A program made the position numbers and the translations under genes. From the NCBI GenBank assembly GCA_045586565.1, contig JAZNAO010000006.1, positions 1,457 through 65,456 on the forward strand: DNA of 64,000 nucleotides. Reading direction: 5' to 3'. The notes beneath the pieces were generated by a model, which had not been told where the DNA came from, ran no database searches, and saw only the letters and a list, made by a program, of their open reading frames with translations. The first letter of the stretch is position 1, and every line of letters begins with the position of its first letter. This DNA is from Candidatus Enterousia sp. GTDB lineage: Bacteria > Pseudomonadota > Alphaproteobacteria > Rs-D84. Shown one piece after another: positions 22,570 to 53,282 of this stretch.

Positions 22570-22635
22570 CGCGATAAATAAAAGTTTAGTCTTGCATAAC
22601 ATTTTACAAGAATCTGTGATTCTTGTCATTGCGCG
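22570..22635 (-). repeat. Repeat element copy A (~65 bp).
   Basis: CGCGATAAATAAAAGTTTAG ... TTTTACAAGAATCtgtgGATTCTTGTCAT TGCGCG. Nearly identical to copy E in reverse complement. Confidence 0.7.
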
Positions 22636-22710
22636 CGCAGCGTGGCAATCCAGTTATATGCGCGTAAAACGCGCACAATATTATGATACAATTTACTGGA
22701 TCGTCACGGT

Positions 22711-22797
22711 CGTTTCACATCCGCGCGATGACAATTTTTGTGAACAAAAATTGTAAACAATGCATGCGCCGAACTTCTATTTATCTGTATAATTTAC
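22711..22797 (+). repeat. Repeat element copy B.
   Basis: CGTTTCAC..CGCGCGATGACAATTTTTGtgaacCAAAAATTGTAAAC...GCAT...CTATTTATC. Same architecture as the other copies but a different, still complementary, stem sequence. Confidence 0.6.
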
Positions 22798-23471
22798 TTT
22801 AAAATTTCAGACATGAATTTTTCGTGGTTTTCTAAATCAGCCGTCGGCACATCAAACTTGCGATATGGAAAGTCCCCACCAACCTTTGGGTGTGCCAACA
22901 TGGCGGCATGCTGCTTTGCGATAATTTCACTGACATCTGGGGCCGGTGCAGTGTTTTCCAGTTCCAAATAAACCTTGGCCAGAATTTCCGAGTCAATCAA
23001 TGCCCCGTGCGCATCTGCACGCGCCGTCAGTGATATCCCATACCATTTTGCCAACGCATCCAATGTATAACTTTTGGGCCCAAACACACGGTTACGCGCA
23101 ATCACCAGTGAATCCAGCATCTGTTCACGTGGAATTGGTGGCATTTTCAGCATTTCTAATTCGTGATTTATAAACGGAAAGTCAAAGTCCATCCCATTGT
23201 GTGCGACAATCGGGCTGTCACCGATAAAGGCCATGAAACGTGGCGCAACCTCTGACATTTTTGGTTTGTCTTCCAGAAATGCGTTTGAAATCTTGTGAAC
23301 CATATATGTATCTGGTGGAATAATTTTGCCTTCGGGATTGATATATTCATGAAAAGAATTATCGGTTATTTTACCGTCAACGATTTCCACTGCACCAATT
23401 TCAATGCATCGGTCGCCGCGCATATAGTCAAACCCAGTTGTTTCAATGTCAAAGCAAATAACGCGTTTCAT
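22794..23471 (-). CDS. dnaQ: DNA polymerase III epsilon subunit (3'-5' exonuclease).
   Basis: Exo I motif FDIETTG plus Exo II and III motifs; 225 aa. Confidence 0.9.
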   Translation of the reverse strand: MKRVICFDIETTGFDYMRGDRCIEIGAVEIVDGKITDNSFHEYINPEGKIIPPDTYMVHKISNAFLEDKPKMSEVAPRFMAFIGDSPIVAHNGMDFDFPFINHELEMLKMPPIPREQMLDSLVIARNRVFGPKSYTLDALAKWYGISLTARADAHGALIDSEILAKVYLELENTAPAPDVSEIIAKQHAAMLAHPKVGGDFPYRKFDVPTADLENHEKFMSEILK

Positions 23472-23521
23472 ATCTTTTTCAATCCCTTGATAATAATTGT
23501 CGGCCGTATTATAATAGAACC

Positions 23522-25591
23522 GTGAATTTAATGCCAGAAAATCTTAACAACGAACAAAAGAAAGCCGTTGAAACGACGTCTGGCCCATTGTTGGTGCTGT
23601 CAGGTGCAGGAACCGGTAAAACACGCGTGCTGACCACACGTATTGCATACATATTAAATTGTGGTCTGGCCCAACCGTGGCAGGTTTTGGCCCTGACCTT
23701 TACGAACAAGGCTGCAAACGAAATGAAAAATCGTCTGGCCGATTTGTCGGATGGTGCGTGGTATTCTGGTGACATTTGGTGTGGTACGTTTCATTCGATA
23801 TGCCTGAGAATTTTGCGCAGTAATGCCGAACGTGCGGGATTACGCCGTGACTTTATAATCTTTGGCGAAGACGACCAGAAATCAGTTATCAAATCATTGT
23901 TGTCGTCATCAACCAAGACACCTGGCGATTATGTTGAAGAATTTTCTGCGATAAAAGACAAAGGCCTGATTGCGTTAAAAAATACCGATAAATTATTCAA
24001 TGCATATAACGCGGAATTGACACGATTAAACGCGGTGGACTTTGGTGATATTATTTTAAAAGTCTTGGAATTATTTGATAAAAATCCAGACATATTGTCG
24101 CGCTATCAAAATCAGTTTAAATATATCTTGGTTGATGAATTCCAAGATACTAATAATGCCCAGATGGAATTTCTGTGCATGTTGACACGCGGTATTGATG
24201 TGCCAAATATTTGTTGCGTTGGTGATGATGATCAATCAATTTATTCATGGCGCGGTGCAGAAATAAAACACATATTAAATTTTGAAAAAACATTCCCAGA
24301 CGCGCAAATAATCCGCCTGGAAACTAATTATCGCAGTACGGCAAATATTCTGGGCGTGGCAAATTCTTTAATCCGACATAATGCAGGGCGCCTTGGCAAA
24401 GATTTGCGCGCCACAGATACAGGACCGGGCGAACCTGTATATGTTTTAACATTGCCGGGCGATCGGGATGAGGCGCGCATTATCGCCGATGCAATATTGC
24501 GCGATGATACAAACGATTTTACAAAATATGCATTACTTATCCGTGCCGGCAGTCTATCGCGTATATTCGAAGAAGAATTTGCAGCACGTGGTATTCCATA
24601 CAAACTAATCGGTGCGACAAAATTCTATGACCGTATGGAAATACGTGATGCGATTGCATATTTGCGCCTGTTGGTATATCCGTTTGATGATATATCTTTC
24701 CTGCGTGTGATTGCAAAGCCACGTCGTGGATTCGGGGACAAGGCAATTGAAAAATTGCGTGCATCTGGCACGAATTTAATGACGGGATTACGTAATGCTG
24801 CGCTGGCGCCTAAGTTGCGCGCGGCGGCGGATGAATTTTTATCTGCATTTGATTTTGATTGGGCGGCGATGCCACCACGTGATGCGGCGCAAAAATTGTT
24901 AAATGATTCTGGCTATATGAAAATGTGGGCAGATTCCAAAGATGTCGATGCCCCCGACAGAATTGCAAATATTCGCGAACTGTTGACGGCGGTAATTTCC
25001 AAATATGACACCATCCCAGAATTCTTGGAACAGGCCGCATTAATGATGACCGATGATAATGATTCCACCGACAATCCGCAAAATAATAACACGGTCAGTA
25101 TTATGACTATACACGCGGCCAAGGGGCTGGAATTTGATACGGTGTTTTTGCCTGCCTGGGAAGAAGGTATTTTTCCAAATGACAAGGCAATAAACGAAGG
25201 CGCCATCGAAGAAGAACGTCGCCTGGCATACGTGGCAATAACGCGTGCACGCCGTCGTTGTATTATATCAAATGCCATGTCGCGTATGGTGTTTGGTTCG
25301 CGTCAGTATAATTGCCCCAGTCGTTTTATCACGGAAATGGATAATAAGTTTTTAGATTTCCAGGGTGGTGCCCCGCGAACATATTCGCCATACACACATA
25401 TATCACGTTCGTATGACCCCGCGCCAAAACCGCGCCCAACAAAATCCGCCACAATGGTTGGCAAATTGGTCACGCACAATGAAATGGGGTCTGGTGTTGT
25501 CATCGAAGACAGTGGCACAATTTTAACAGTCGCATTTAAATCGCGTGGCATAAAAAAAGTCGCCCGTGATTTTGTGAAAACAATTGGATAA
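23522..25591 (+). CDS. uvrD: ATP-dependent DNA helicase of the UvrD/PcrA/Rep family.
   Basis: Walker A LSGAGTGKT; UvrD helicase motifs throughout 689 aa. Could equally be labelled pcrA. Confidence 0.9.
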   Translation: MNLMPENLNNEQKKAVETTSGPLLVLSGAGTGKTRVLTTRIAYILNCGLAQPWQVLALTFTNKAANEMKNRLADLSDGAWYSGDIWCGTFHSICLRILRSNAERAGLRRDFIIFGEDDQKSVIKSLLSSSTKTPGDYVEEFSAIKDKGLIALKNTDKLFNAYNAELTRLNAVDFGDIILKVLELFDKNPDILSRYQNQFKYILVDEFQDTNNAQMEFLCMLTRGIDVPNICCVGDDDQSIYSWRGAEIKHILNFEKTFPDAQIIRLETNYRSTANILGVANSLIRHNAGRLGKDLRATDTGPGEPVYVLTLPGDRDEARIIADAILRDDTNDFTKYALLIRAGSLSRIFEEEFAARGIPYKLIGATKFYDRMEIRDAIAYLRLLVYPFDDISFLRVIAKPRRGFGDKAIEKLRASGTNLMTGLRNAALAPKLRAAADEFLSAFDFDWAAMPPRDAAQKLLNDSGYMKMWADSKDVDAPDRIANIRELLTAVISKYDTIPEFLEQAALMMTDDNDSTDNPQNNNTVSIMTIHAAKGLEFDTVFLPAWEEGIFPNDKAINEGAIEEERRLAYVAITRARRRCIISNAMSRMVFGSRQYNCPSRFITEMDNKFLDFQGGAPRTYSPYTHISRSYDPAPKPRPTKSATMVGKLVTHNEMGSGVVIEDSGTILTVAFKSRGIKKVARDFVKTIG

Positions 25592-25595
25592 AAAA

Positions 25596-25620
25596 ACGGC
25601 ATGACGCCGTTTTTTTATTT
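25596..25620. terminator. Bidirectional terminator between uvrD and the convergent membrane-protein operon.
   Basis: AACGGCATGACGCCGTT followed by a T tract. Confidence 0.6.
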
Positions 25621-26910
25621 GCGTGATTCTTTGATAATTTTATACCATTCTTTGACAGACTTTTTTGCATCGCCCCATAATCTGGTCACGTCTGATTTTA
25701 ATGATGTGCCCATTGAAGAATCTATTGCGCCACCTATGTCTGTTGCAATTTGTGATGCATGACTGGCCAGATACCATGTCAACGCCATCACAAACATAGA
25801 TGTCCATATATTTGGATTATCAAATTCTGGCACCAACCCAGGATTTGTTAAATCCATAACGCCCGATAATAATGCTGTGCAAATTGCAATAACAATTGAC
25901 AATGTGACAAAGTGCAGGGCTGCATTGATAAAACGCATAATTTGTGCCTGTAAAGATTCTGTGGAAAATAACTTTACAAAACCATTATAAATATCACCAA
26001 CAATTCCCTTGTATGATGTTTGGCCCACGCACTCTGCAATTGCAGTAAAAGGCAACATTATAATCCCCAAGAATAAATCTGCAATTACACCAAATGCAAC
26101 AAATGCAAATTTCCATGCCAGATATATAAACCCACCAATCATTGCGCCACCACACAGGAATGAAAACATACTGCGTCCGATACCGTATGCCATCCATTTC
26201 CATCCAACCGCCACCGCCGTATAACAAAATCCGGATAATCGTGTTGGAATACACATAATGTTTGCTGCGGCTTCTGGGGGCAATAAATTAGATTCAGATA
26301 TATGTTCTGTGGCATACATATGAATCGCTGTGCATGTGTCTGGGATTTGTGCGCCTGCAACACTGGCTACTGCATTTAAAATTAAATCAGATATCAGTGA
26401 TGCAACGCTTAAAATTGGACTCATCACCATCATAAATGTTTCTGCCGGTCCGACATTTAACACCACCACCCACATTGCGGTTATTGCGCCTTTTTTCAGC
26501 ATTGATTTTATTGTGTCTTTAGTGTCGGCTTTGCCGGTGATTATATTATATGCCTCTAACCCCATCCAGAATGCATACATCAATATGATAAATATGATTG
26601 TAAACCGAACCAATGACGAATCCAGTATATGCCCGATATGTGAAAACGCATTCATAAATGCCAGACCGATTTTCGCTTCTATTGGGACAAACCCCACATC
26701 AAAATTTTGTATTGTATTTCCGTGAAATTTTTCAAAATCCCCAGACAGTTGCCCTATAAACAATTCTCGGTTTGCTTCCGTGGTCCATACCCCATTATCA
26801 CCGATATCTGGTAACGGTACATTTGTTTCGCCAAATGCCGGCACCGCCATAACCGTTGCGATTGCAACAAGTGCTAAATACCTACAAAGATGTTTAAATA
26901 CCTTTATCAT
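25615..26910 (-). CDS. VirB6/TrbL-like polytopic membrane protein, paralog 4 of the operon.
   Basis: Signal peptide and at least five transmembrane segments. Shared C...GW.M block with the neighbouring paralogs. ATGA overlap with the upstream gene. Confidence 0.45.
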   Translation of the reverse strand: MIKVFKHLCRYLALVAIATVMAVPAFGETNVPLPDIGDNGVWTTEANRELFIGQLSGDFEKFHGNTIQNFDVGFVPIEAKIGLAFMNAFSHIGHILDSSLVRFTIIFIILMYAFWMGLEAYNIITGKADTKDTIKSMLKKGAITAMWVVVLNVGPAETFMMVMSPILSVASLISDLILNAVASVAGAQIPDTCTAIHMYATEHISESNLLPPEAAANIMCIPTRLSGFCYTAVAVGWKWMAYGIGRSMFSFLCGGAMIGGFIYLAWKFAFVAFGVIADLFLGIIMLPFTAIAECVGQTSYKGIVGDIYNGFVKLFSTESLQAQIMRFINAALHFVTLSIVIAICTALLSGVMDLTNPGLVPEFDNPNIWTSMFVMALTWYLASHASQIATDIGGAIDSSMGTSLKSDVTRLWGDAKKSVKEWYKIIKESRK

Positions 26911-28352
26911 TTATTTGTCACCACATCTGCAATTGTATCTGTAATTTTTAATGGCGCACGCCCAGTTGTTTTTATCAAATCACCTGTCCATTTACCAAAA
27001 TCAAACAATTCTGGACTGTCTTTGCCCAACATCTTGTCAATCTTTGGGCTGATTGCATAAAAGTACAAGAAGAACAAACATGCCATCATCAACAAGAAAT
27101 CCCATCCATCATCCATAAAATTAAATGCGTTTGGATACTTTCTTTCAACTTCTGCCTTGCGTGCGGTAAAGCAATTTTTAAATTTATCTTTGTCCATTTC
27201 GCCATCTACCAAAGCAACCTGTTCACATGTTGTAAACACATTCATTACAGATAATGTTTGTGCGTCTGGATTTTCGGCATGCATACCCATCATTGGTGGT
27301 AATATTGCCGTATATCCATCATTTGGTCCTGGGAAAAACGCATCTGCGGTGTATGATACCGTCGCGTATATCACCAATGTTTTCAATGTAATGGCGATAA
27401 TTCTTACTGCTGATGTAACCAGCATATTTATTGCATTCCCCAATAACCCATTTGCCTTGGCCCAGACGCCTTCGAACGCATATGATGCCAATAACAGTGG
27501 CAAAAATATAACCAAGAATACCAGTTTAAATACCACAGATAATATTTGAAAAAACAAATCAAAACCAATCAGCAAGAACATCAATACCAATGCCAATCCT
27601 GCGACCCACGTAAACGCACCGCCACCCATACCCATCCAAGAATAATTCATCAGTGAAAATCCGCCTGCGGCACCTGCCAGCATTACACTGTTTATATTTC
27701 CAACAACGCACATAAATGGTTGCAGTATTGGATTTAAAATATCATTTTCGTTTTCAGAATATTTATCATTTCTCAAATTGCATTGTGCAGAATCACTGAT
27801 ACCTGTGGCGGCCATTGATAATTCTGCCCCAAGATACATAACTGGTGTAATTGTTAGTTGTGATACTGTCTTTAAAGCGCCTGTGCCGCCCATCCCCAGC
27901 ATTCCCATTACTGCACCAACAATCAGCACACGTGCACCCTGTTTCCAGATTTTGTCGACCAGCGCATTTATTTCCAATTTCTTTTCTGTGTCGTCTAACT
28001 TCATGGCTTCTTTTGCAGAATTTAACATATGCTGAACAATACTGATGACAATAAACAACCCAAATCCCAACACCATCAATATCCAAATATTGTTTACCAT
28101 TAAATTCCAGAATTTGTCGGCTGCATTCCCGATGACTGTGAACAAATCAGAAATATATCTGCACATAAAACATCCGTTGACGTTTGAAATATTCCCGTCA
28201 GTTGCCCCCACGGCCGTTAAAAAGTTATCCAAACTGGTATACGTAATGGATGTACCGCCCAAAGATGACGACAAATACCATATCCCCAGCCCTAATGCGG
28301 CGATGATAAAGAATGCTTTGATGGCCATAACAATCAATTTTGCCTTTAACAT
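26907..28352 (-). CDS. VirB6/TrbL-like polytopic membrane protein, paralog 3.
   Basis: N-terminal GCFMCRYISDLF motif homologous to SCWSCPIFDRLF and SCWTCQMFSDIM in the other paralogs. Multiple transmembrane segments. Confidence 0.45.
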   Translation of the reverse strand: MLKAKLIVMAIKAFFIIAALGLGIWYLSSSLGGTSITYTSLDNFLTAVGATDGNISNVNGCFMCRYISDLFTVIGNAADKFWNLMVNNIWILMVLGFGLFIVISIVQHMLNSAKEAMKLDDTEKKLEINALVDKIWKQGARVLIVGAVMGMLGMGGTGALKTVSQLTITPVMYLGAELSMAATGISDSAQCNLRNDKYSENENDILNPILQPFMCVVGNINSVMLAGAAGGFSLMNYSWMGMGGGAFTWVAGLALVLMFLLIGFDLFFQILSVVFKLVFLVIFLPLLLASYAFEGVWAKANGLLGNAINMLVTSAVRIIAITLKTLVIYATVSYTADAFFPGPNDGYTAILPPMMGMHAENPDAQTLSVMNVFTTCEQVALVDGEMDKDKFKNCFTARKAEVERKYPNAFNFMDDGWDFLLMMACLFFLYFYAISPKIDKMLGKDSPELFDFGKWTGDLIKTTGRAPLKITDTIADVVTNK

Positions 28353-29542
28353 TACTTACCTTCCTTGTCGTCGTCTTTTTTTAGCACTATTTTTGCGGTA
28401 TTTGTAACCGCGCCCACCGCATTCTTGGTCAGCCCCATAATTGCATCTGCGACCTGTTCGCCATATTCTGTTTTTTCTGCGACACCAAATGCGTCCAGTA
28501 TCATTTTTGTAATCGCTTTGGATTGGTCGTAAATATAATTTAAAACGTAAATTAAAATACTGCAACTCATCAACGTCATGGATTCCAAATTTTCTGTATT
28601 CAAATCTGCGTTGTATAATTCACCTGTTGTAATTGCATTCATCAAATCGTTTACAGATACATCCGATGCACTAAAGAACTTGGCGATTACAACCATAATA
28701 ATCGTATACGTTATAACGATTGATCCCAAAGACACAATCGAATTTACCAAATTCTTTATTTGATTTATCCCGACCCCAGATCCCAATTTTTTTATCCATT
28801 CTGGTACATGTTCTGCGCCAGTGAACGCCATTGTCATCAATGATAGTGGGAAAAAGAATGCAAAGAACGCCATTGCAACAATTGCGTCTGCAAATCTGCA
28901 ACAATATCGGAAAAATAATTTTATAAATCCCCATGACAGATAAAATCCAATAAAGAACAACATGATATGCTTTAACAAACTGCCAATTCCGGTCAAAGCC
29001 TTCCATGAAAAAGCGTTATCTACGACCGCAATCCCCAGTTTTATATATGATTGGAATTGTGTGATTGTCGTCTGCATCAACAATAATATTTTATTACGCA
29101 GTTCTGGCCTAAAAAAACTATCATCTGTCATTTCTTTTGGGGTATATGGAACTTTTTCTTCGACCTGAACTGTATCCAGTTGGATTATGTTTTGTGTATA
29201 AACCGTTGTAACAGATGCAATGGGTTCGAATATTAGTGTAGATACCATTCGTGGTAATGTGACACCCGCCCCCAGCAGTCCGACAACAACAATCGAATTT
29301 AAAAATACTTTTTGTATGGATTTCTTAAAGAATAGGTCGTCCATCCCTTTTTGCATATTTTTCATCCATGCATTTGACACATACAATGCAAATAATGCAA
29401 TCAACAACATCAGACATAATTTTGCAAAATTATCATATATATACGCGGCTGCCAAAGACACAATCTGAAACAGACGGTCAAATATTGGACAACTCCAACA
29501 TTGGATTGAATTGTCTATCAAAGATGATGTCCATTCGTTCAT
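28352..29542 (-). CDS. VirB6/TrbL-like polytopic membrane protein, paralog 2.
   Basis: SCWSCPIFDRLFQIV and LPRMVSTLIFEPI blocks shared with the divergent paralog. Multiple transmembrane segments. Confidence 0.45.
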   Translation of the reverse strand: MNEWTSSLIDNSIQCWSCPIFDRLFQIVSLAAAYIYDNFAKLCLMLLIALFALYVSNAWMKNMQKGMDDLFFKKSIQKVFLNSIVVVGLLGAGVTLPRMVSTLIFEPIASVTTVYTQNIIQLDTVQVEEKVPYTPKEMTDDSFFRPELRNKILLLMQTTITQFQSYIKLGIAVVDNAFSWKALTGIGSLLKHIMLFFIGFYLSWGFIKLFFRYCCRFADAIVAMAFFAFFFPLSLMTMAFTGAEHVPEWIKKLGSGVGINQIKNLVNSIVSLGSIVITYTIIMVVIAKFFSASDVSVNDLMNAITTGELYNADLNTENLESMTLMSCSILIYVLNYIYDQSKAITKMILDAFGVAEKTEYGEQVADAIMGLTKNAVGAVTNTAKIVLKKDDDKEGK

Positions 29543-30801
29543 TTCTTTTTAAACCATCCCAATGCGCTATTAAATGCGCTGGTTGTTTGTTTGATACCTT
29601 TCCACATTGTTGTGGCGTCACCATTGACCTGTCTATACAGTTTATCCATACCGCCACCGATATAATTTTCCAGTTGCTTTTGTGTCATCTGATAGATTTT
29701 ATACATCAAAAAGAATGTCAATATTGCCGACATCCATGTGACAGAATGTGTTCCAAATCCAATTGCATTTACAACTTCTGGTGTGGGCAGATTGCTGTAT
29801 GCGCTGCCCCCGGCGGCAGAAACAAATACCGAAGAATTCCATCGGAACAGTGCTTTGATTACCGCCAAATTGATGCACAGTATAAACGCACATGCAATCA
29901 TAGTGATAATCAATTGTTGTAACGCCTTGGTAATACCGCTGAATGCGGGCCAAACATCGAACCATTTATCACTGGACTTGGTCACGTATGTCAGCACATA
30001 GAACGGATATAAAATCAGTTGTACACCGAAATTAAATATTCCCTGTATAATCAGCATTGCCATAAACAGGTTACTGCCGATAAATGTGATTATTAGAATA
30101 ATCCCGGTCAATACATTCATTAAATCTTCGCCACCATGTGGAATCAATGTCAACAGCCCGCGCAATCCACGTGTCAAGAAATCAAATCCGCGTTTTATAA
30201 TCTGGTTGTTTGCGTGTGATAAATCAGATATTGGTTGCACTAAAAATTCGCATGATTCCGGATTCAACCACGCTTTTTCTGTAATGCTGGTTGGGCAATC
30301 TATTTTTTGTGCGTTGGTTCCTGTTTCGTTGATTGTCTGTGTTATTTCATGAGTATATACCGACCCCAGTTTTAAAAAAGGATTTACCAACCACTGCGTC
30401 AAGAACATCGGTGACAGTTGTAATAAAAATACAATTGCGATAAATGCGCGAAATCCAGGTTTTAGAACTTTTGTTGCGATGTCCATTGGACCGGCTTTGC
30501 CATCAGCGATTTCACCGCCCCCCGATATGTTAAAGAACGCCAGCACTTCTTTCGGGGCAAACATTTTTAACAGTCCGATTACAATAGTTATAACGAAAAA
30601 TAATATAACCAATCCTTGAATAATTCCGTTGCCCACAAAAAATTCATATCCGCCCGTGGCAACCATCATCAGCGCATCCAATATCATCGGCACAAAAGGT
30701 GCCAAATTTAATGCGTCAACAATATCTGCATGTGCGGCCCCTGGTGCGCAGAAAACCGCGACAAAACATAAGGCTGATAATATTTTTTTTAGTATATTCA
30801 T
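29539..30801 (-). CDS. VirB6/TrbL-like polytopic membrane protein, paralog 1 (first gene of the operon).
   Basis: Signal peptide MNILKKILSALCFVAVFCAPGAAHA, at least six transmembrane segments. ATGA overlap with the downstream gene. Confidence 0.4.
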   Translation of the reverse strand: MNILKKILSALCFVAVFCAPGAAHADIVDALNLAPFVPMILDALMMVATGGYEFFVGNGIIQGLVILFFVITIVIGLLKMFAPKEVLAFFNISGGGEIADGKAGPMDIATKVLKPGFRAFIAIVFLLQLSPMFLTQWLVNPFLKLGSVYTHEITQTINETGTNAQKIDCPTSITEKAWLNPESCEFLVQPISDLSHANNQIIKRGFDFLTRGLRGLLTLIPHGGEDLMNVLTGIILIITFIGSNLFMAMLIIQGIFNFGVQLILYPFYVLTYVTKSSDKWFDVWPAFSGITKALQQLIITMIACAFILCINLAVIKALFRWNSSVFVSAAGGSAYSNLPTPEVVNAIGFGTHSVTWMSAILTFFLMYKIYQMTQKQLENYIGGGMDKLYRQVNGDATTMWKGIKQTTSAFNSALGWFKKK

Positions 30802-30868
30802 TCTCTCTTTTTATTTTTATCTTTTCAATTATATCACATTTAATGCAAAATATGGTATACTTAAAAAC

Positions 30869-32159
30869 AATGAATTGGTTAAAAAAATTTTGGATAATGT
30901 TTTTGTCCTTTCTGCCGATTGGGGCAGGGGCGGTTGCGCCATTTGTGATAAAGGGGTTGATTGGTGCGACGGCGGTTGCTGGATTTTCCATATATCGCAA
31001 TATGTCGCCTGTAAATATGGCAGACGCATTGGAATTTTTTTCATCGTGTTGGACGTGTCAGATGTTTTCAGACATTATGGCAACAATGTCGAATATATTG
31101 CCCCCTATATATGACGGTTTGGGTGGCGCGATAATTCCGTTTGCGATAATTCTGACGGCGGTATGGTTTGCGTGGCAGATTGTCAGTGATCATATGAATG
31201 CCAAAACGCCAGAAGCATGGTCTTTTACAACAAAATTTAGCACGCATTTAATAAAATTGACAGCGGTGTGTGCACTGCTGGCGGCGCCAATTCCGCGCAT
31301 GGTGACCCAAATTGCGATTGAACCGATATTTAATGTTGGTTTATCACTAAATCGATTGGTGGCGCATGACGATAGTTTTGATTCGTGTGTTGTGTCGACT
31401 GCCTTGGTTGATCCAACATCAGACAGTGCAGATGCGGCCAATTCTGGGGTGTTTTCGCCAAAGTTACGTCATAATTTAACATGTGAATTGGCGGGTGTGC
31501 ATCAAATGACAGGTCTGGGGATGACCGTTGGGTGGACAATGTTAAATATGTCATTCGATTCGGAATATATGCATAAAATTATGTGGGCTATCCCGATTTT
31601 TCCGAACGTGATACTGTTTGTTGCGGGCGCATTGATTGTGGGGTTATTTTTCTTGGCTTTGCTGCCGATACCATTGTATTTCTTAGAAATATTCATAAAG
31701 CTATCATTGGATATGGTGATGTTACCACTGATGTTGTTGGGTTGGTTGTTTGATGGATGGGCAATATCCCTCAAAGGGGCAGGTAAAACGATTCGTTCTA
31801 TTATTGATGACGTGATAAATGGGACGCTGGGGTTGGCGGTGACGGGTGTATTTGTATCATTTGCGATAATGTTTTTGAATGCGATATTCGGTGATTGGAA
31901 TGGTGCATCTGTTTTATCGACTGCATTGACCCAAAATGATTCGAAAATTTTGATAGACGCCTTGATGATGCGCAATGACAGTTTGGTTACTATAATTCTG
32001 ATGGGATTGTTTATGGCTGCGTTTATGACAATGATTCCTGCCCTGGCGAAGTCTTTGTTTAGCATAACTATATCCACAGAATTCTATGATTCGGCAAAAA
32101 AGAACCTTGATACACTGTGGAAAGGCTTGAAAAACGTATACGCACAAATAAAAAAATAA
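30869..32159 (+). CDS. VirB6/TrbL-like polytopic membrane protein, divergent paralog 5.
   Basis: Start chosen at MNWLKKFWIMFLSF (ATG at 30869) rather than the ORF-track start at 30699, which overlaps the divergent gene. SCWTCQMFSD and IPRMVTQIAIEPI blocks. Confidence 0.45.
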
Positions 32160-32226
32160 AAATCAAGTGCTTTATTTAACATAGCCCCCTTTTTTGTGTG
32201 TTCCGAATCTGATATAATTCATAGCA

Positions 32227-32736
32227 ATGACAAAGTTTCCGATTCTTTATTGGTCACGCAGAACCGCTGGGGACAGCGAATATCAGTTGGCGCGCAAGGT
32301 TATAAATAATGCCACGGGTGTTATGCCGGACGTGTTGACTGATGATATTGATATTGCGGCGATATTGGCGCAAAATCCAAATGCGACGATTTACTATCCT
32401 GTGTTTTGCGGTTCAACAGGTTGGTGGGGTGAATTATTGGGGTGTGATGCGGTTGTCGTTGATAAAATGATAATATCCCCCGAATGTCAATTGATGGTTA
32501 TCGAATCGCAAAAAAATGCCAAACCGCGTGGCACGAATCAGTTATTGGCGGCTGAAATTTACCCGACCAGTGGTTTTTTCAAGAAAATGAATTCTGGGAT
32601 TGCGACGGTTGCAGATATGTTGGCGACGGACGCCGGGACAATATTGGCATTATTCTCTGGCAAGAATCAGAATCAGTTTATAAATGTATTGGAATCGACG
32701 GGCAATTCATATCTGGGATGCATTGGTCGATATTAA
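32227..32736 (+). CDS. Hypothetical protein (169 aa).
   Basis: ORF only. Confidence 0.35.
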   Translation: MTKFPILYWSRRTAGDSEYQLARKVINNATGVMPDVLTDDIDIAAILAQNPNATIYYPVFCGSTGWWGELLGCDAVVVDKMIISPECQLMVIESQKNAKPRGTNQLLAAEIYPTSGFFKKMNSGIATVADMLATDAGTILALFSGKNQNQFINVLESTGNSYLGCIGRY

Positions 32737-32811
32737 AATGCTATTATTGCTTGATTTCTGTAAAAATACTTGTATAATTTGCGGGCTAAAATTTAAACAA
32801 AGGTAAACATC

Positions 32812-33024
32812 ATGAAACAAGGAATTCATCCTGAATATCACGAAATCAACGTCACCAGAACAGATGGCAAGACGGTAAAAATGTATTCTTCTGTTAAAAA
32901 AGACTTGGTTTTGTCTACTGATAATTTGAACCATTCTGCCTGGACAGGTCAGCGTTCTAATGCCGGTGACAAGGGTCAACGCGCTGCTGATTTCAAGGCG
33001 AAATTTGCAGGATTCAAATTTTAA
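32812..33024 (+). CDS. rpmE: 50S ribosomal protein L31.
   Basis: MKQGIHPEYHEINVTRTDGK...; 70 aa. Confidence 0.9.
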   Translation: MKQGIHPEYHEINVTRTDGKTVKMYSSVKKDLVLSTDNLNHSAWTGQRSNAGDKGQRAADFKAKFAGFKF

Positions 33025-33054
33025 TCTGAACTACGTCTGGATGGGGGCGACGAT

Positions 33055-33759
33055 ATGGAATTGCTGATTAAAGGTTCGACCGAATTAAACAAAATGTTTA
33101 TGGCGTTGCAACGTACTGCGTCTGGTCTGCGCCGTGATTTTGGAGAGGTGGAAAACCTGCAACAATCGTTGCGTGGCGCACGTGATTTTGTGCAAAAGGC
33201 ATCTGCCCGTATCGAAGAAAGTATTTTAAACGACCTGTTGTTGGTTCGTCCATCGGCGGGTTTGTTGACACCAAACGTATCGCGTGCGGGTGATGGACGT
33301 GACGAATTTGTTTTGTCATTGTCTGGTGCGTCTAATTTTGTTCGTGGCAATCCGCATTTTGCAATATCATTGGCATTGCGTTCAAATGACGAAACAAAGA
33401 TTGCGTTGGTATATTCCCCAATTGACGAAAGATTGTACTATGCAGAATCCGAACGTGGTGCATATATATTCTCGGCGTATCATTCTGCCCGAATTAAGGT
33501 GTCTAATTTGTCAGACCCGGCGGATGTAACGGTTGGTTACAATACATCTGATAATCGTGAAACGATTGGTGATGTTCGTCGTACGGGATGTCCGGCATTG
33601 GATTTGGCATGGGTTGCGGCGGGTAAATTAGATGCATATGTATCAGACCCACTGGATTTTGCAGAAATTGCGGCGGGCGACCTGATTGTCCGCGAAGCAG
33701 GCGGCCGAATTGAAATGATGACTGACCTGGTTGCAACGAACGGTCATATTGAAATTTAA
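33055..33759 (+). CDS. Inositol monophosphatase-family protein with a degenerate active site (SuhB-like, probably non-catalytic).
   Basis: The WDxAAG motif (LDLAWVAAGKLDAY) is present. The metal-binding DPIDGT motif is replaced by SLSGAS in the otherwise alignable block DEFVLSLSGASNFVRGNPHFAISLAL. Confidence 0.6.
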   Translation: MELLIKGSTELNKMFMALQRTASGLRRDFGEVENLQQSLRGARDFVQKASARIEESILNDLLLVRPSAGLLTPNVSRAGDGRDEFVLSLSGASNFVRGNPHFAISLALRSNDETKIALVYSPIDERLYYAESERGAYIFSAYHSARIKVSNLSDPADVTVGYNTSDNRETIGDVRRTGCPALDLAWVAAGKLDAYVSDPLDFAEIAAGDLIVREAGGRIEMMTDLVATNGHIEI

Positions 33760-33760
33760 A

Positions 33761-33788
33761 ATCCCCCATTTGGGGGATTTTTTTGAGT
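33761..33788 (+). terminator. Intrinsic terminator.
   Basis: AAATCCCCCATTTGGGGGATTTTTTT. Confidence 0.75.
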
Positions 33789-33798
33789 TCAAGTTTCT

Positions 33799-33862
33799 TA
33801 GATAAATAAAAGTTTATCGAAGTATTTTTTACAATTTTCTGACAAGAAAATTGTCATTCCTG
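33799..33862 (-). repeat. Repeat element copy C.
   Basis: GATAAATAAAAGTTTA...TTTTACAATTTTCtgacaaGAAAATTGTCATT. Confidence 0.6.
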
Positions 33863-33995
33863 CTCCGGGCCCCGCAAAAATTGTAAATTTTTGTGGGTGG
33901 GCATAGGCAGGAACAGGGTTTATAAAATTTACATACTCTCTGGAATACGTAATTGGTGCGCGTTGCGCACGGTTAAGAGACCCTATTACCGCCTG

Positions 33996-34060
33996 CGCGG
34001 TAATGACAAGAATTAAAAATTCTTGTAAAATGTTATGCAGATTTAAACTTTTATTTAAGT
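33996..34060 (+). repeat. Repeat element copy D.
   Basis: CGCGGTAATGACAAGAATTaaaAATTCTTGTAAAATG...GCAG...AAACTTTTATTTA. The promoter of the Cys-rich gene follows immediately. Confidence 0.65.
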
Positions 34061-34061
34061 A

Positions 34062-34090
34062 TTGATTCAACTTTTCAAAAATGATAAAAT
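34062..34090 (+). promoter_or_regulatory. Sigma70-type promoter of leader L1.
   Basis: TTGATT, 17-nt spacer, TAAAAT. The -10 box sits inside the conserved TGATAAAAT block. Confidence 0.65.
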
Positions 34091-34358
34091 ACATTTGTCG
34101 GTGGGATTTTTCACCGATGGGGTGTGGAAACCCGTTATCTAAGCGTCTATGCACGATTGCATAACGCGCCAATGGCGTGTTTTTTGTGCAGTGTATGGAT
34201 GAAAATTTTTTTCTCCTGATCTTATGTGGTCAGGAGGGCTGCGAATATATTGAATAAGCACACAATTCTTAGATATTGTTTCCAACCTCCTGGCCACCTA
34301 TCTTTTATGGTGGTTTTTGTTTAATTTGCGTATGCAGAACGAAAGGGAGGAAAGTAAT
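34091..34358 (+). promoter_or_regulatory. Conserved structured 5' leader L1 (candidate riboswitch or attenuator).
   Basis: P1 TCGGTG/CACCGA, P2 GGGT/ACCC, hairpin CTCCTGA/TCAGGAG (34213-34237), antiterminator GTGGTCAGGAGG pairing with CCTCCTGGCCAC, terminator CCACC-9nt-GGTGG followed by TTTTT (34294-34318), ribosome-binding site GAAAGGGAGG. Confidence 0.6.
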
Positions 34359-35102
34359 ATGCAAAAATTTTTAAAACTAACCGGCGTATCAGTTTTGGCA
34401 ATCGTTGCCGCAACGGGCGCCAATGCCGCGGGATACACCTGTGAAGAATTGATTGAATACACAGCATGTAATGATGGGTGGTATTTAAACGATGGTGATT
34501 GTATAGAAAGCACAACATGTCCATCGGGCAGTTATTTACGTCCGTTTTGTTCAGTGAGCGATTGTGGTGTGAGTTATGATTCTGAGACCGAAGAATATAC
34601 TTGTTGTGATGGTGATTATGTTGCAAACCTGGAATGCATACAATGCCCATCTGTTGGTCTGACTGACAAAGACGGCAAAGTGGTGTCGGTTAAATCACAG
34701 CCTGGCTCAATGGGTGTTGGTTCGTGCTATATTGACCCGAATGCATATTTCAAGGATAGCACGGGGACATATCATTATAAGTCCAATTGTTCTGTGCGTT
34801 TCTGGGAAACATCCCCAGACACAGAAGAAGAATGTACCAGTCTTGGTTTTGAATGGGTATATACAAGTGGTGAATCAGATTCTTATTATGTTTGTGCGTT
34901 GAACATGCGGATTAGTGAACAGTTGGGTTTAATAAAGACAGAAGAAGAATGTAACGCGGCAGCTGAAAAAATATATGGCTTGGTATGGAAAGATGAAGGA
35001 GATTATTATTATTCCAGATGCGAAACCATAAACTACGAAGAGAGTTACTTTATTTTTAGGGATGAATGGTATGTTTTTGGTGATCCTATTTCTCACTCCT
35101 AA
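34359..35102 (+). CDS. Secreted Cys-rich repeat protein, paralog 1 (248 aa).
   Basis: Signal peptide MQKFLKLTGVSVLAIVAATGANA. AGYTCEELIEYTACNDGWYLNDGDCI is near-identical to paralog 3. CxxCP..GLTDKDG module; 20 Cys. Confidence 0.8.
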   Translation: MQKFLKLTGVSVLAIVAATGANAAGYTCEELIEYTACNDGWYLNDGDCIESTTCPSGSYLRPFCSVSDCGVSYDSETEEYTCCDGDYVANLECIQCPSVGLTDKDGKVVSVKSQPGSMGVGSCYIDPNAYFKDSTGTYHYKSNCSVRFWETSPDTEEECTSLGFEWVYTSGESDSYYVCALNMRISEQLGLIKTEEECNAAAEKIYGLVWKDEGDYYYSRCETINYEESYFIFRDEWYVFGDPISHS

Positions 35103-35107
35103 AATAA

Positions 35108-35134
35108 AAAATCCCGCAATCGCGGGATTTTTTA
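35108..35134. terminator. Bidirectional terminator between the Cys-rich gene and convergent fabZ.
   Basis: ATCCCGCAATCGCGGGAT followed by TTTTT. Confidence 0.7.
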
Positions 35135-35569: not shown

Positions 35570-35742
35570 TCGATATTCCTTTCCTATTATTTTTGTTTAG
35601 ACAACATCCAACTTTCAATTATAATTTTTGTCTGTGGTTTTAACAATTGATTATCAGTTTGCATTTTTTGCAAAATGCGTTTTGGTGGATAAATATAAAT
35701 AATATTTTTATTTCTATTGTCTATCATTTTTGTGTGAATTGC

Positions 35743-40990: not shown

Positions 40991-41005
40991 CCCAAGGATA
41001 AATAA

Positions 41006-41602: not shown

Positions 41603-41642
41603 ACCCAGTGTTTTAATTATTTGTTCGTGTTAAAGTGTTTCT

Positions 41643-41900
41643 ATGGCATTGATAGAAACACTTTTTGATTTATTGGTGGCATCTGCGGGTGCGATTGTCG
41701 GTGTGTTGTTTGGATTGTTCCTGGAACGTAAACGGCGTCGCCAAATGGCAAATCAATTGATTGTCAGTCGTCAAACATTGGATAAAGTAAAATTGGAAAA
41801 CGAACGATTATTGGAAACAATACGCGAAAAAGAAAATCTGATTTTACAAATGGAAATGCAAATTCTGGGACGGCGTTCGCGCGCACGAAAAAAGAAATAA
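41643..41900 (+). CDS. Small membrane-anchored coiled-coil protein (LapA-like), hypothetical.
   Basis: One N-terminal transmembrane segment followed by a basic coiled-coil; 85 aa. Confidence 0.35.
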   Translation: MALIETLFDLLVASAGAIVGVLFGLFLERKRRRQMANQLIVSRQTLDKVKLENERLLETIREKENLILQMEMQILGRRSRARKKK

Positions 41901-41929
41901 TTGCAAATATATATTTTTTGTCTTAAAAT

Positions 41930-43984: not shown

Positions 43985-44052
43985 TTCGTATAATACCATT
44001 TGTTTATTCAAAGTTTTGTGATAGAATGTTTGCATAAGGAAAGGATTTTATT

Positions 44053-46315: not shown

Positions 46316-46319
46316 TGCT

Positions 46320-47363: not shown

Positions 47364-47364
47364 A

Positions 47365-47397
47365 AAAAAATTCCGGTGTTGCCGGAATTTTTTATTT
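47365..47397 (+). terminator. Intrinsic terminator after murG.
   Basis: TTCCGGTGTTGCCGGAA followed by a T tract. Confidence 0.7.
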
Positions 47398-47452
47398 TCT
47401 GCTTGCGTGCGATTCGTCATTTGTTCTATGATGCAAATGGAAGGAAAGGAAA

Positions 47453-48733: not shown

Positions 48734-49449
48734 AATTAGTTCGTGTATTTATTGAATTTTTGTTTCCGCCGGCGTGTCCACTGTGTGATACGCCGGTATC
48801 AATTCATGGTGAATTATGCGGCGATTGTTGGTCTGCGATGAGTTGGATATCTGGTGCGCATTGTGCGTGTTGTGGTTATCCATTTCCATTGGAATTAGAT
48901 TTGCCGGATGGTGCCATGTGTCCGGTATGCGCATCTGGGAAAAATGAGTTGGATTGGATTCGTTCTGCGTGCGTATATGATGACGTTTCACGTTCGGCAA
49001 TGTTGCCGTTTAAACATGGTGGTCGTGTCGGTTATGCGCGATTTATGTCGCGTGCAATGATTTGGGCATTGCGCGATGTAAATGTTGATGCAGATATTGT
49101 TATGCCGGTGCCATTGGCGCGTGGTCGATTGTTTAAACGCGGTTATAACCAGGCAACATTATTGGCGCGCCCAATTGCGCGTGCGTTGGGTGTAAAAATG
49201 GATGTTGATTCTGTGCGTCGTAAATATCGCCCAGATATGGGGCATAAAAACGCACGTCAACGTGCAGAAAATATCCATGGTGTGTTTACTGTGGTAAATC
49301 CAGATGTGATACGTGGTCGGAAAATTTTGTTGGTTGATGATGTTATGACAACAGGTGCAACATTTGCAGAATTGCGTCGCGTTTTAATGCGTGCAGGTGC
49401 GACAGCGGTATACGGCGTGACATTTTGTCGCGTTGCACACGCGGTTTAG
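48727..49449 (+). CDS. comF: ComF-family phosphoribosyltransferase.
   Basis: N-terminal double CxxC zinc finger (CPLCD...CGDCW, CACCGY...CPVC). C-terminal PRTase motif VLLVDDVMTTGAT. Confidence 0.8.
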   Translation: MVELVRVFIEFLFPPACPLCDTPVSIHGELCGDCWSAMSWISGAHCACCGYPFPLELDLPDGAMCPVCASGKNELDWIRSACVYDDVSRSAMLPFKHGGRVGYARFMSRAMIWALRDVNVDADIVMPVPLARGRLFKRGYNQATLLARPIARALGVKMDVDSVRRKYRPDMGHKNARQRAENIHGVFTVVNPDVIRGRKILLVDDVMTTGATFAELRRVLMRAGATAVYGVTFCRVAHAV

Positions 49450-49889
49450 TTATATGTGTATTCTGATGTAAGTCTTACGATTCTGTTTTTTAACAATTGC
49501 ATTTCTTGTTGTATAACGCGTTTGGAACACGCATCAAAGATATTGATAATTTCCTGTTCGCGTGGCGTAAATATTCTGCGGTTTGCAGATACCGTCATAT
49601 GTGCAATATCTTCTTCATATGCGGTGTCTTCTTCATATATCATAATCGTATATAATACATCGGTGGATCCGTTTGGGGTTTCAAAGAAATCGCGCGCCAT
49701 TTCTATATATTTGTCGCCCACGATGCATATTTTGTATATAATTGCACCTTGTTCATGCAGTGTACTGATAACACTGCTGTCGATCAGCGAATGAATCATC
49801 GGTATTGCATCTTCGGATAATGGTAAAAAATCTTTGTCTATTGTCGCCATGTTGGTTTTAATGATAGATACAAAAAAAACAGTTGTCAA
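49446..49889 (-). CDS. Hypothetical protein (147 aa).
   Basis: ORF only. A LuxR-like C-terminus was considered but the alignment is poor. Confidence 0.3.
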   Translation of the reverse strand: MTTVFFVSIIKTNMATIDKDFLPLSEDAIPMIHSLIDSSVISTLHEQGAIIYKICIVGDKYIEMARDFFETPNGSTDVLYTIMIYEEDTAYEEDIAHMTVSANRRIFTPREQEIINIFDACSKRVIQQEMQLLKNRIVRLTSEYTYN

Positions 49890-50001
49890 GTTTTTGTTTT
49901 GTGACCAATATACATCGTGTTTTTGTCTGATTTTCTTGAATTCTGAATTTAATCTGATACGATAAATGTCAGGTTATTTTTTACAAAACAGGACAACAGA
50001 T

Positions 50002-52404: not shown

Positions 52405-52408
52405 AATC

Positions 52409-53137
52409 ATGGCTGATAAACTGATTGAAAAACGTGTCCTGCAGGCATATCAGTGTGACCGATTTGGTAACGTTCGTCCACTGATTTTGATGAATGAATT
52501 GCAATCTATTGCCGACCGTCATGCAGAAATTTTGGGGTGTGGTCGCACATATTGCCTGGCCAATAATGTTGGTTGGGTTGTGATGTATTACCTGGTCGAT
52601 ATTGTTGAATTACCACGCGAAGGCGAAGAACTGACATTTGCCACGTGGCCATCGTGCCAAGATGCCCTGCGTGCGACACGTGACTTTGAAATTCATGGGT
52701 CTGACGGTCGTTTAATGGTTCGTGCCACGTCCCAGTGGATATTGATTGATATGTCGCGTCGTCGGCCTGTGCCATTGGCAAACCATCTGTCGCCAGACGT
52801 TGTTGTGCCACACCGTGCATATGGTTGTGCATTTGAAAAGTTTCCGGACTTTGAAACGACCAAGACACATGTTATGAAATGTCGCTTTGATGACATTGAT
52901 GTGAATCAGCATATAAATAATGCGGTTTATGCGGTCTGGGCGACCGAAAGTGTCGGATATAAATATCGCACAGAACACAAATTGAAAAAGATAGATATTT
53001 GTTTTAAAAAGGAAGTGAGTCTGGACATCCCAGAAATTTGCATTGATGTTGCGATTGATGGTCTGGTGTCACGTCACAAGATTCGCAGTGGCGACACCGA
53101 ACACGCGGTTGTCATTTGTCATTGGGAACAAATATAA
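52409..53137 (+). CDS. Acyl-ACP thioesterase-like hot-dog protein.
   Basis: Length and organisation resemble acyl-ACP thioesterases (PF01643). AAGGA ribosome-binding site before ATG 52409, immediately after the valS stop. Confidence 0.5.
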   Translation: MADKLIEKRVLQAYQCDRFGNVRPLILMNELQSIADRHAEILGCGRTYCLANNVGWVVMYYLVDIVELPREGEELTFATWPSCQDALRATRDFEIHGSDGRLMVRATSQWILIDMSRRRPVPLANHLSPDVVVPHRAYGCAFEKFPDFETTKTHVMKCRFDDIDVNQHINNAVYAVWATESVGYKYRTEHKLKKIDICFKKEVSLDIPEICIDVAIDGLVSRHKIRSGDTEHAVVICHWEQI

Positions 53138-53163
53138 AATCCCCGCCACCCGGCGGTTTTTTC
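53138..53163 (+). terminator. Intrinsic terminator.
   Basis: CCGCCACCCGGCGG followed by TTTTTT. Confidence 0.7.
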
Positions 53164-53205
53164 AGCGACAAATAATAATGATACTATGGACTGGATTGCC
53201 ACGTT

Positions 53206-53282
53206 CGTTTCACTCCCTCGCGATGACAAGAATCACAGATTCTTGTAAAAATAGTTGTATAACTAAACTTTTATTTATCGCG
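53206..53282 (+). repeat. Repeat element copy E.
   Basis: CGTTTCAC..CGCGATGACAAGAATCacagGATTCTTGTAAAAATAG...AAACTTTTATTTATCGCG, with terminal CGCGAT/ATCGCG inverted repeats. The promoter of leader L2 follows directly. Confidence 0.7.

Follow-up and report, generated by a model that had tools for sequence, protein, structure and literature searches.

Bipartite palindromic repeat modules beside cysteine-rich protein genes in Rs-D84-like gut Alphaproteobacteria

Results

The window carries two complete foldback elements and one half element

The 64 kb stretch of Candidatus Enterousia DNA analysed here (contig JAZNAO010000006.1; hereafter the window) carries, in spacers next to genes for cysteine-rich (Cys-rich) proteins, five copies (A to E) of a hairpin-bearing repeat that an initial annotation had picked out. 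An nhmmer profile of the repeat arm matched exactly these five arms, with E-values from 1e-13 to 3e-18. No sixth copy was found in the whole window at E < 1e-3, and with the nhmmer filters off all arms were recovered and nothing further. In agreement with this, the pattern ATGACAA-N10-20-TTGTAAA was found five times in the window, compared with 0.04 expected, and none of 100 shuffles reached five. Profile search and pattern count thus both recover A to E where they had been annotated, and all five copies do adjoin Cys-rich protein genes.

The unit had been described as 65-80 bp long, which understates it. A/B and C/D are inverted pairs with the tails pointing outward, and form two complete bipartite foldback elements of 228 and 266 bp, whereas E is a truncated half element. 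Element A/B (22565..22792) lies between the terminator of a 1104-aa Cys-rich gene and the dnaQ stop codon, and consists of arm A (22565-22640, minus strand), a centre (22641-22700) and arm B (22701-22792, plus strand), the arm limits here and in C/D being those of the nhmmer profile. Each arm has an AT-rich hairpin, hp2, which reads ACAAGAATC-aca-GATTCTTGT in A (22606..22626, minus) and ACAATTTTTG-tgaa-CAAAAATTGT in B (22731..22754, plus), and the centre holds a GC hairpin that we read directly from the sequence (tgcgcg-taaaa-cgcgca, 22659..22675). The outer boundary sequence of arm A is the tail TAAACTTTTATTTATC (22573..22588, minus); that of arm B, CGAACTTCTATTTATC (22770..22785, plus), stands directly 3' of the dnaQ stop codon.

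Element C/D (33795..34060) extends from the suhB terminator to the promoter of a Cys-rich gene, with arm C at 33795-33887 (minus), the centre at 33888-33971 and arm D at 33972-34060 (plus). Here hp2 is ACAATTTTCT-tgtc-AGAAAATTGT in C (33831..33854, minus) and ACAAGAATT-aaa-AATTCTTGT in D (34006..34026, plus). Arm D also has the sole intact copy in the window of a second, GC-rich hairpin, hp1 (ATTACCGC-ctgc-GCGGTAAT, 33985..34004, plus), which is decayed in A, B, C and E, and a central GC hairpin is found at 33956..33970 (gtgcgc-gtt-gcgcac). The tails occupy 33801..33816 (minus) in C and 34044..34059 (plus) in D. The half element E (53175..53286, plus) follows directly 3' of the terminator of a thioesterase gene and is made up of a partial centre (53175-53194) and an arm (53195-53286), with hp2 at 53226-53246 and the tail at 53264-53279, both on the plus strand. 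What it retains of the centre is evident from the 82% identity of 53175-53229 to 22680-22734.

Arms A, C and E carry the 16-nt tail TAAACTTTTATTTATC without a mismatch, D with two mismatches and B with three. Single-stranded DNA folding predicted a hairpin of 9-10 bp in five of five copies on both strands, and the stem sequences given in the initial annotation are correct. Whole-arm folding z-scores lay between -3.7 and -4.7 in C, D and E and between -1.2 and -1.75 in A and B. Other details of the annotation had to be revised. The proposed inverted CGCGAT termini are not a feature of the family, since a CGCGAT/ATCGCG pair is present only in E and the corresponding position in relatives is the 3' arm of hp1. 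Arms A and E are 87% identical over 69 nt instead of >90%. Neither D nor E ends exactly at a -35 box, the tail stopping 2 nt before it in D and 19 nt before it in E. The hairpin layout was also incomplete, as it had missed the bipartite foldback arrangement, hp1 and the fact that the tail belongs to a promoter module. An open reading frame (ORF) that spans C/D (33798-34172, minus) was dismissed as translated repeat DNA.

The family is found in related small-genome gut bacteria

The same family was identified in at least seven related uncultured gut Alphaproteobacteria (Rs-D84/Enterousia-like); the loci numbered L below are stretches from genomes or metagenomes of these relatives. A degenerate pattern scan of one genome per species returned 65 matches, 12 of which are real loci, all in gut 'Alphaproteobacteria bacterium' metagenome-assembled genomes (MAGs), the rest being chance matches. 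A metagenome scan added two further real loci, L067 and L073. One SuhB homologue at 86% identity belongs to Candidatus Enterousia avicola, and Enterousia, of the order Rs-D84, comprises uncultured gut symbionts with genomes of less than about 1 Mb that are about 90% coding (PMC12306168). The family is confined to this clade of uncultured small-genome, Rs-D84/Enterousia-like gut Alphaproteobacteria. It does not consist of local copies left by one segmental duplication, a possibility that the initial annotation had raised against itself, because it occurs in many genomes and at unrelated loci. Four copies that are 94-98% identical lie at four unrelated loci of a single MAG (MAG321), and copies are also found at loci unrelated to the Cys-rich gene family (L019, L040 6931 and L073).

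Across the 14 loci of relatives and the window, arms occur almost always as (-,+) pairs with the tails outward. Their inner ends are 18-45 bp apart in relatives and up to 84 bp apart in C/D, so that the module measures 207-229 bp in relatives and 207-266 bp when the window elements are included. Its layout is tail - hp2 - hp1 - centre - hp1 - hp2 - tail, and the centre often holds a further GC hairpin. From the inside outward, the parts of an arm are the inner motif (ACCTGGrTT or AGAGwCCCTAT), hp1 (a GC-rich stem of 7-9 bp with the loop TCAAG or CTGC), ATG, hp2, AAA plus about 13 nt, and the tail. In the arm the tail reads AAACTTTTATTTATC followed by NNNGTAWT, and the consensus for the whole module is TAAACTTTTATTTATC(NNN)GTAWT. 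This is the most conserved part: 39 of 46 distinct tails share the same central AAACTTTTATTTA, and an invariant central CTTTTA is flanked by partial dyad symmetry (AATAC..GATAAA / TTTATC..GTATT).

Other types of body are also found between tails. At L040 1230-1365, a different body lies between inverted tails, in the order reverse-complemented tail, TGGTTAG-type 7-nt repeats, hairpin, CCACTAA-type repeats and tail; a third tail and a leader promoter follow about 75 bp beyond it.

Hairpin stems vary but remain complementary

At least eight different perfect stems of hp2 were found among the species, all built on a constant ACA./.TGT base (GAATC/GATTC, GAATT/AATTC, TTTTTG/CAAAAA, TTTTCT/AGAAAA, AAACGT/ACGTTT, AAATG/CATTT, AAATC/GATTT and GAATTTTTT/AAAAAATTC). 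A ninth, AAATAC/GTATTT, was found in a solo arm directly upstream of a promoter (L018 961-1033). The earlier proposal that the hairpin is kept by compensatory change therefore extends beyond the five window copies. The hp2 loop is 3-10 nt long, and hairpin loops are not conserved.

Pair counts were made on 17 distinct arms, with stems anchored on the hairpin ends and loops padded with N; the stems were re-anchored by hand because MAFFT misplaced the 3' stem where loop lengths differ. With these author-chosen anchors, and with the 'weak' arms whose hp2 is decayed mostly outside the alignment, hp2 was paired in 97.4% of cells, with both-sided changes in six of nine pairs. The corresponding values for hp1 were 79.4% and five of eight, the former being lowered by the inclusion of the decayed window copies. 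The covariation score was 0.529, compared with 0.185 +/- 0.024 for shuffles (0 of 500 reached the observed value) and a maximum of 0.216 when the partner was slid. Within helices, G-T pairs were seen once in about 150 hp2 pair cells and twice at one internal hp1 position; the remaining ones are concentrated at the outermost position of hp1, where the pair may not be real.

Stems differ between the two arms of one element, indicating that local hairpins are kept and not arm-to-arm pairing. The unpaired linkers (ATGACAA, TTGTAAA and the tail) are invariant while the stems vary. The spacing between the ACAA and TTGT flanks ranges from 21 to 28 nt, which argues against a rigid dimeric binding site on double-stranded DNA or a fixed operator, in line with the earlier view that this is not a fixed protein-binding sequence. 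Taken together, the near-exclusive Watson-Crick pairing, the equal folding of both strands, the arm-specific stems and the unconserved loops fit DNA better than RNA. That the hairpins are kept by compensatory change also suggests that structure matters for whatever propagates or processes the module.

Elements are absent, replaced or inverted between relatives

When orthologous spacers of relatives were compared, presence/absence differences of the kind envisaged in the initial annotation were found at both the C/D and the A/B locus. C/D is absent at the same locus in L079, L080, L081 and L096, in which SuhB is 97% identical and the gene order rpmE, suhB, leader, Cys-rich gene, fabZ, lpxD is shared. 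In these loci, the T-run of the terminator runs straight into ATTTATCTTTGCATTTGC... and the promoter. As the sequence from the terminator to the -10 box differs as well, the difference does not amount to a clean insertion.

A/B is absent in relatives with 96-98% identical DnaQ, where three states were found. In L105 and L109 (98% identical DnaQ), dnaQ and its terminator are followed by a convergent 314-aa Cys-rich gene with leader and promoter, and beyond the promoter come an inverted tail, a GC-rich body of 135 bp and a forward tail. L106 and L107 have an identical DnaQ protein and the same Cys-rich gene and leader as L105, with a different -35 box and spacer, and carry a mini-element of 110 bp in which a D-type arm is fused to a C-type arm at TTCTTGT. 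In L111 and L115-L118, a single tail stands directly after the dnaQ stop codon, at the position that B's tail has in the window. Comparing L105 11880-12200 with L106 11880-12100, we observed that the -35 box and spacer are like those of L079 in one and like those of window D in the other, and that the body between the two tails also differs; this is in effect a swap of the promoter, with the leader and the tail as its limits.

Elements also differ in orientation. L031 and L064 come from different species. Their elements reach 96.6% identity only if one of them is reverse-complemented (78% otherwise), whereas the flanks align in the same orientation at 80% on the left (coding sequence 76%, leader 87%) and 79% on the right. 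L001 and L034 show the same inversion pattern, at 96.4% identity. The switch from flank-like to element-like sequence at the inversion junctions lies inside the tails, and conservation is higher in the element than in the leader and coding sequence next to it.

On a larger scale, the elements mark rearrangement breakpoints. In relatives at 94-95% identity, suhB is followed by quite different genes, so that gene order breaks there, and the thioesterase gene that adjoins E is followed by lptF/lptD in another relative. In one related species (L129-L138, 3001-4405), dnaQ and suhB are convergent and 25 bp apart. In the window (22794-33759), they lie 10 kb apart, each abutting an element (A/B and C/D, respectively), and the uvrD-dnaQ block is inverted relative to this species. 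One locus of the same series, L131, contains a 90-aa ORF with a GIY-YIG domain (277-549, plus strand, within 1-900) inside a cluster of hp1-like units, each a GC hairpin beside GTCAT/ATGAC, between a gene for an approximately 1120-aa Cys-rich protein and uvrD. This ORF, seen in L131 only, has no NCBIfam match and may be unrelated, or may be a candidate nuclease partner.

Tails are part of the promoter module of leader-bearing Cys-rich genes

An element is typically bordered on one side by the terminator of an upstream gene, in many cases with a short run of 7-nt repeats after it. On the opposite side, there is either a mirror-image arrangement or a sigma70-type promoter, a conserved leader of 230-300 nt and a secreted Cys-rich gene, and such a gene adjoins at least 13 of 19 elements. 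In the window, arm D is adjoined by TTGATT-N17-TAAAAT (34062..34090, plus), which lies outside the repeat and precedes the leader and Cys-rich gene 34317-35102. Arm E is adjoined by TTGACC-N17-TAAAAT (53299..53327, plus; read from the sequence), which precedes those of 53535-55040.

CTTTTATTTATC, or a sequence close to it, precedes the -35 box by 7-9 nt in every one of the 13 leader promoters examined, and neither the -35 nor the -10 box falls within a tail. Where an arm is present, its end is 57-61 nt from the leader motif in six of seven cases, and 70 nt from it in E. A tail is also present upstream of arm-less promoters (L079 and similar loci, L040 1507 and window 55120). The tail is thus part of the promoter module, namely the -45 to -60 segment of the promoters of leader-bearing Cys-rich genes. 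This double role explains the position of the modules beside Cys-rich genes, and implies that they reshuffle the upstream regions and chromosomal neighbourhoods of those genes.

In two arms, A (22603-22629, minus) and D (34003-34031, plus), hp2 and its flanks themselves read as a sigma70-type promoter with a 10/12 match, the palindrome forming the spacer; the one in D points toward the Cys-rich gene. We rejected hp2 as a general promoter, since ATGACA-N17-TAAAAT fits only A and D and the spacing is at least 19-20 nt in most members. An outward promoter in the tail, feeding units of 7-nt repeats and terminator, was likewise discarded, no acceptable -35/-10 pair being found by eye.

The 5' leader of the Cys-rich genes (230-300 nt; about 34097-34358, 53334-53570 and 55150-55430 in the window, and L025 1420-1665) is conserved across species. 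It has a hairpin adjoining the start site, followed by GGGGTGTnnrACCCG, and further includes an internal terminator-like hairpin (34163-34187) and a CTCCTG..GGTCAGGAGG hairpin that has an alternative pairing with a downstream AACCTCCTGGCCACC, with a terminator after it. Segments 34226-34268 and 55291-55333 are 98% identical. The leader core matches the Rfam family sRNA-Xcc1 below threshold, at 32.2 and 27.6 bits where the gathering score is 53. The E leader contains a 20-codon ORF (53450-53512) whose frame is not preserved in the D leader, which gives the leader the look of an attenuator-type RNA rather than of a leader peptide.

The window encodes four members of the secreted Cys-rich family (19118-22432, 34317-35102, 53535-55040 and 55291-56376), which have an N-terminal signal peptide and the motif AAGYTCEELIEYT; one member has Ephrin_rec_like repeats. 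Their length and location are highly variable among strains, with 314 aa after dnaQ in L105, none in L115, and 322 aa after suhB in L079. Arrays of 7-nt tandem repeats, of the types GAGAYAT, CCACTWA and CAAAGTK, lie between terminators and elements or promoters, or between two convergent terminators. We noted them at window 55067-55088 and 33785-33798, at L012 865-930, L001 3408-3450 and L025 1100-1130, and downstream of dnaQ in L119-L125; they count two to four units among strains with identical DnaQ protein. Bidirectional intrinsic terminators of the form AAAATCCCCC-N4-GGGGGATTTT are the largest small-repeat family in the window, and these stereotyped terminators are found at 9153-9185, 22454-22486, 33752-33784, 35102-35134, 53130-53162 and 55035-55067. 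Finally, 25615-32159 holds five consecutive genes for multi-pass membrane proteins (431, 481, 396, 420 and 486 aa) with no Pfam match, which are conserved beside uvrD in relatives L105-L110.

No known family accounts for the element

In agreement with the earlier statement that no described element has such a sequence, we found no Rfam family and no phage or plasmid match. At the gathering threshold, Rfam matched only a tRNA in the window, and nothing relevant was found over the arms at E <= 10. A tRNA or tmRNA origin was discarded because neither is present at the element sites, and a phage, plasmid or viral origin because blastn gave no match in phages or plasmids and six pattern matches in viral contigs were due to chance, none being recognised as an arm by nhmmer.

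Discussion

We propose that the family consists of non-autonomous foldback modules that are prone to recombination at the DNA level and bounded by conserved tails, akin to REPIN, MITE or dif modules. This is our leading interpretation, although still tentative, and we give it a probability of about 0.45. The module would act as DNA, and neither as RNA nor as a fixed double-stranded operator. The body between the inverted tails could be flipped, exchanged, reduced to a single arm or lost, the breakpoints falling within the tails or beside them. What is conserved would be the local hairpins, as cruciforms or in single strands, presumably acted on by a structure-specific enzyme encoded elsewhere (HUH/RAYT-like or tyrosine-recombinase-like) or by the replication and repair machinery. 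Effects on expression or on antigenic variation may follow from such events.

Several observations weigh against this proposal. Neither hairpin is indispensable, as many elements have a 'weak' arm with a decayed hp2 and hp1 is decayed in all window arms but D, and compensatory change could arise without selection, by templated correction of quasi-palindromes. No transposase or recombinase domain was found in the scanned window ORFs of >100 aa, nor among the 25 families listed for 74 ORFs that neighbour elements in relatives; six families recur in at least two of these ORFs, the recurrent ones including PLD, PlsX, histidine kinase and SMC-type domains. At 16 junction pairs inspected by eye, no consistent direct repeat suggestive of a target-site duplication was seen, and 'empty' sites keep one tail-like sequence (L079, L096, L111, L115-L118 and window 55100-55130), both of which speak against a classical cut-or-copy transposon. 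Inverted tails would account for flipping; simple site-specific recombination between them would neither insert nor excise a body. Copies are few, with one to four loci per MAG by the strict pattern and three in the window. Moreover, an element or remnant follows the gene for the approximately 1100-aa Cys-rich protein in the window, L012 and L129-L138, and an element follows the PLD gene in three species, in both cases in synteny, so that some copies are old and can be stable. Of the independent mobility considered in the initial annotation, the spread over genomes and loci is borne out, and transposon-type mobility is not. The two functions it suggested, upstream of promoters or in recombination, are both compatible with our findings.

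In its regulatory form, this idea would make each arm the far-upstream region of the promoters of leader-bearing Cys-rich genes, and a bipartite element two such regions back to back. At about -45 to -60, the tail would play the part of an A/T-rich, UP-like element, and a regulator or nucleoid protein would bind the hairpins, at about -65 to -125, in the form of cruciform or bent DNA. The fixed geometry of tail and promoter, the nearly constant distance from arm to leader, the solo arms directly upstream of promoters (window E and L018), the Cys-rich genes beside most elements and the higher conservation of the element than of the adjacent leader and coding sequence are all as expected from such a role. 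On the other hand, promoter, leader and gene exist without an arm in close relatives and at window 55120, elements between convergent genes (A/B, L012 and L065) have a promoter on neither side, and promoters of the same kind in L031 and L064 are faced by opposite arms, whose hairpins differ. Between hp2 and the -35 box there are 32, 35, 41, 43 or 49 nt, so that helical phase is not kept, hp2 is decayed in several promoter-facing arms, and the swapping and dispensability of arms would be left unexplained. We therefore consider a purely regulatory function somewhat doubtful. The readings are not mutually exclusive, and a recombining module could also modulate a neighbouring promoter. A role as structured RNA, in which arms transcribed from a central promoter or by read-through would give multi-hairpin small RNAs or untranslated-region elements with the stems as RNA helices, appears highly improbable. 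Invariant linkers with covarying stems are a classical RNA pattern, G-poor 7-nt repeats and then an intrinsic terminator lie outward of many tails, and we could read a TGGGCA-N17-TATAAA match in the C/D centre. However, Rfam gave no match over the arms, G-U pairs are nearly absent inside helices, both strands fold symmetrically and the loops are not conserved. There is no consistent promoter from which the arms would be transcribed, the element works whichever way it faces its neighbours, and transcription of both arms would have to diverge from a centre of 18-45 bp.

A further possibility is that the elements are neutral by-products, relics of inverted or segmental duplication and of gene conversion among the paralogous upstream regions of Cys-rich genes. 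Their hairpins would then be kept perfect by quasi-palindrome (template-switch) correction and not by selection, and the rearrangements would follow merely from the presence of repeats. The elements are indeed dispensable and patchy, many arms have decayed hairpins, and microhomologies are found at breakpoints (a run of TTTT where L079 has its junction, and TTCTTGT where the L106 arms are fused). Conserved leaders and tails could serve as homology anchors for gene conversion, and the failure to find an enzyme in the window ORFs or among the families of the 74 neighbours fits as well. Nevertheless, strongly reduced genomes with about 90% coding density (PMC12306168) still keep modules of more than 200 bp, and the element is 96-97% identical between species whose flanks are 76-87% identical. 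Invariant unpaired linkers with varying stems are the pattern expected under constraint, and some copies lie at loci unrelated to the gene family. We consider a neutral origin unlikely. At the other extreme, the tails might be targets of a dedicated site-specific recombination system that flips or exchanges hairpin modules, promoters and whole Cys-rich surface-protein cassettes. Such a system, which seems improbable to us, would represent surface variation like that of a chromosomal shufflon or of dif modules in genomes of <1 Mb, with the covarying hairpins as accessory recombinase structures.

The initial annotation compared the repeat with REP-type palindromes, which is a fair description of the concept. 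Repetitive extragenic palindromic (REP) sequences and bacterial interspersed mosaic elements (BIMEs) occur in gamma-proteobacteria, and REPINs are REP doublets mobilised by RAYT, a Y1 HUH transposase. Like these, the modules are short intergenic hairpin palindromes just after terminators, form inverted doublets, and have stems that vary yet remain complementary. A REP sequence is an imperfect palindrome of 20-40 nt whose short conserved flank is a 5' tetranucleotide of the GTAG/GTGG type, and hp1, of 20-23 nt and GC-rich, has GTCAT/ATGAC in an analogous layout with a different sequence; ACAA/TTGT is found at the base of hp2. Unlike REP sequences, each arm combines two or three different hairpins with a conserved tail of 15-25 bp, the whole unit measures 207-266 bp, there are few copies per genome instead of hundreds, and these are tied to one gene family and promoter. 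Neither a GTAG-type tetranucleotide nor a RAYT/Y1_Tnp domain was found, the latter in the window ORFs or among the families listed for the 74 neighbours.

The Correia (CREE/NEMIS) elements of Neisseria are miniature inverted-repeat transposable elements (MITEs) with promoter-bearing ends. As in these, our modules are non-coding units in the range of 100-300 bp with terminal inverted repeats, here the inverted tails and arms of a unit below 300 bp; they occur in both orientations, are present or absent between strains, and abut or contribute to neighbouring promoters, often of surface-protein genes. They differ from MITEs in lacking a target-site duplication, in the terminal repeat retained at 'empty' sites, in low copy number and in having no sequence similarity, and no insertion sequence related to them is known. 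RIMEs of Rhizobium and neisserial NIMEs are mosaic intergenic elements of several palindromes in (alpha-)proteobacteria, and NIMEs are concentrated around surface-protein genes, with a supposed role in promoting recombination. The mosaic of palindromes and the proximity to surface genes are shared, whereas there is no sequence relationship, the module order is different, and the present family occurs in Rs-D84-like bacteria only. As in integron attC sites, which are recognised as folded single strands, conservation is limited to the ends and to foldability, and length and stem sequence vary. In contrast to attC, there are no RYYYAAC/GTTRRRY core sites (the flanks being ATGACAA...TTGTAAA) and no integrase domain in the window, and the neighbouring genes carry their own promoter and leader. 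Invertible promoters of the fimS or Bacteroides type, in which inverted repeats enclose the promoter and a recombinase gene lies next to it, share the inversion of a segment, here between species; in the present case, the promoter lies outside the tails and no recombinase gene was found beside the elements, in the scanned window ORFs or among the families listed for the 74 neighbours.

Like dif sites, which have an 11-6-11 layout, the tail is partly palindromic about a centre that is asymmetric and invariant (..GATAAA-CTTTTA-TTTATC..). Its match to the proteobacterial dif consensus is weak (by eye about 6/9, 3/6 and 6/11). The dif/pdif modules of Acinetobacter plasmids are units bounded by inversely oriented XerC/D sites (PMC6449649, PMC13141974). 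The resemblance to these lies in variable bodies between short inverted conserved sites, in different bodies that share a boundary site, and in shuffling, inversion or loss between close relatives; here, unlike there, the modules are chromosomal, in a reduced genome, and their bodies are non-coding hairpin arrays or single surface-protein cassettes. By analogy, the family would thus work most like REP doublets/REPINs, Correia-type promoter-adjacent MITEs and Acinetobacter dif modules, and departs from the first two in at least one defining feature each, its match to the dif consensus of the third being weak. It belongs to the bacterial intergenic palindromic repeat modules as an undescribed family specific to Rs-D84-like gut bacteria.

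Conserved non-coding modules of more than 200 bp are unexpected in genomes of less than about 1 Mb that are about 90% coding (PMC12306168). As the family marks points at which gene order, promoters and Cys-rich cassettes differ between relatives, it offers a handle on how the surface-protein repertoire of these bacteria is rearranged. It also provides a clean natural example of DNA palindromes kept by compensatory change. If an enzyme partner exists, the modules would represent a new structure-guided recombination system; if there is none, they would be a useful case of palindrome persistence through replication-templated correction.

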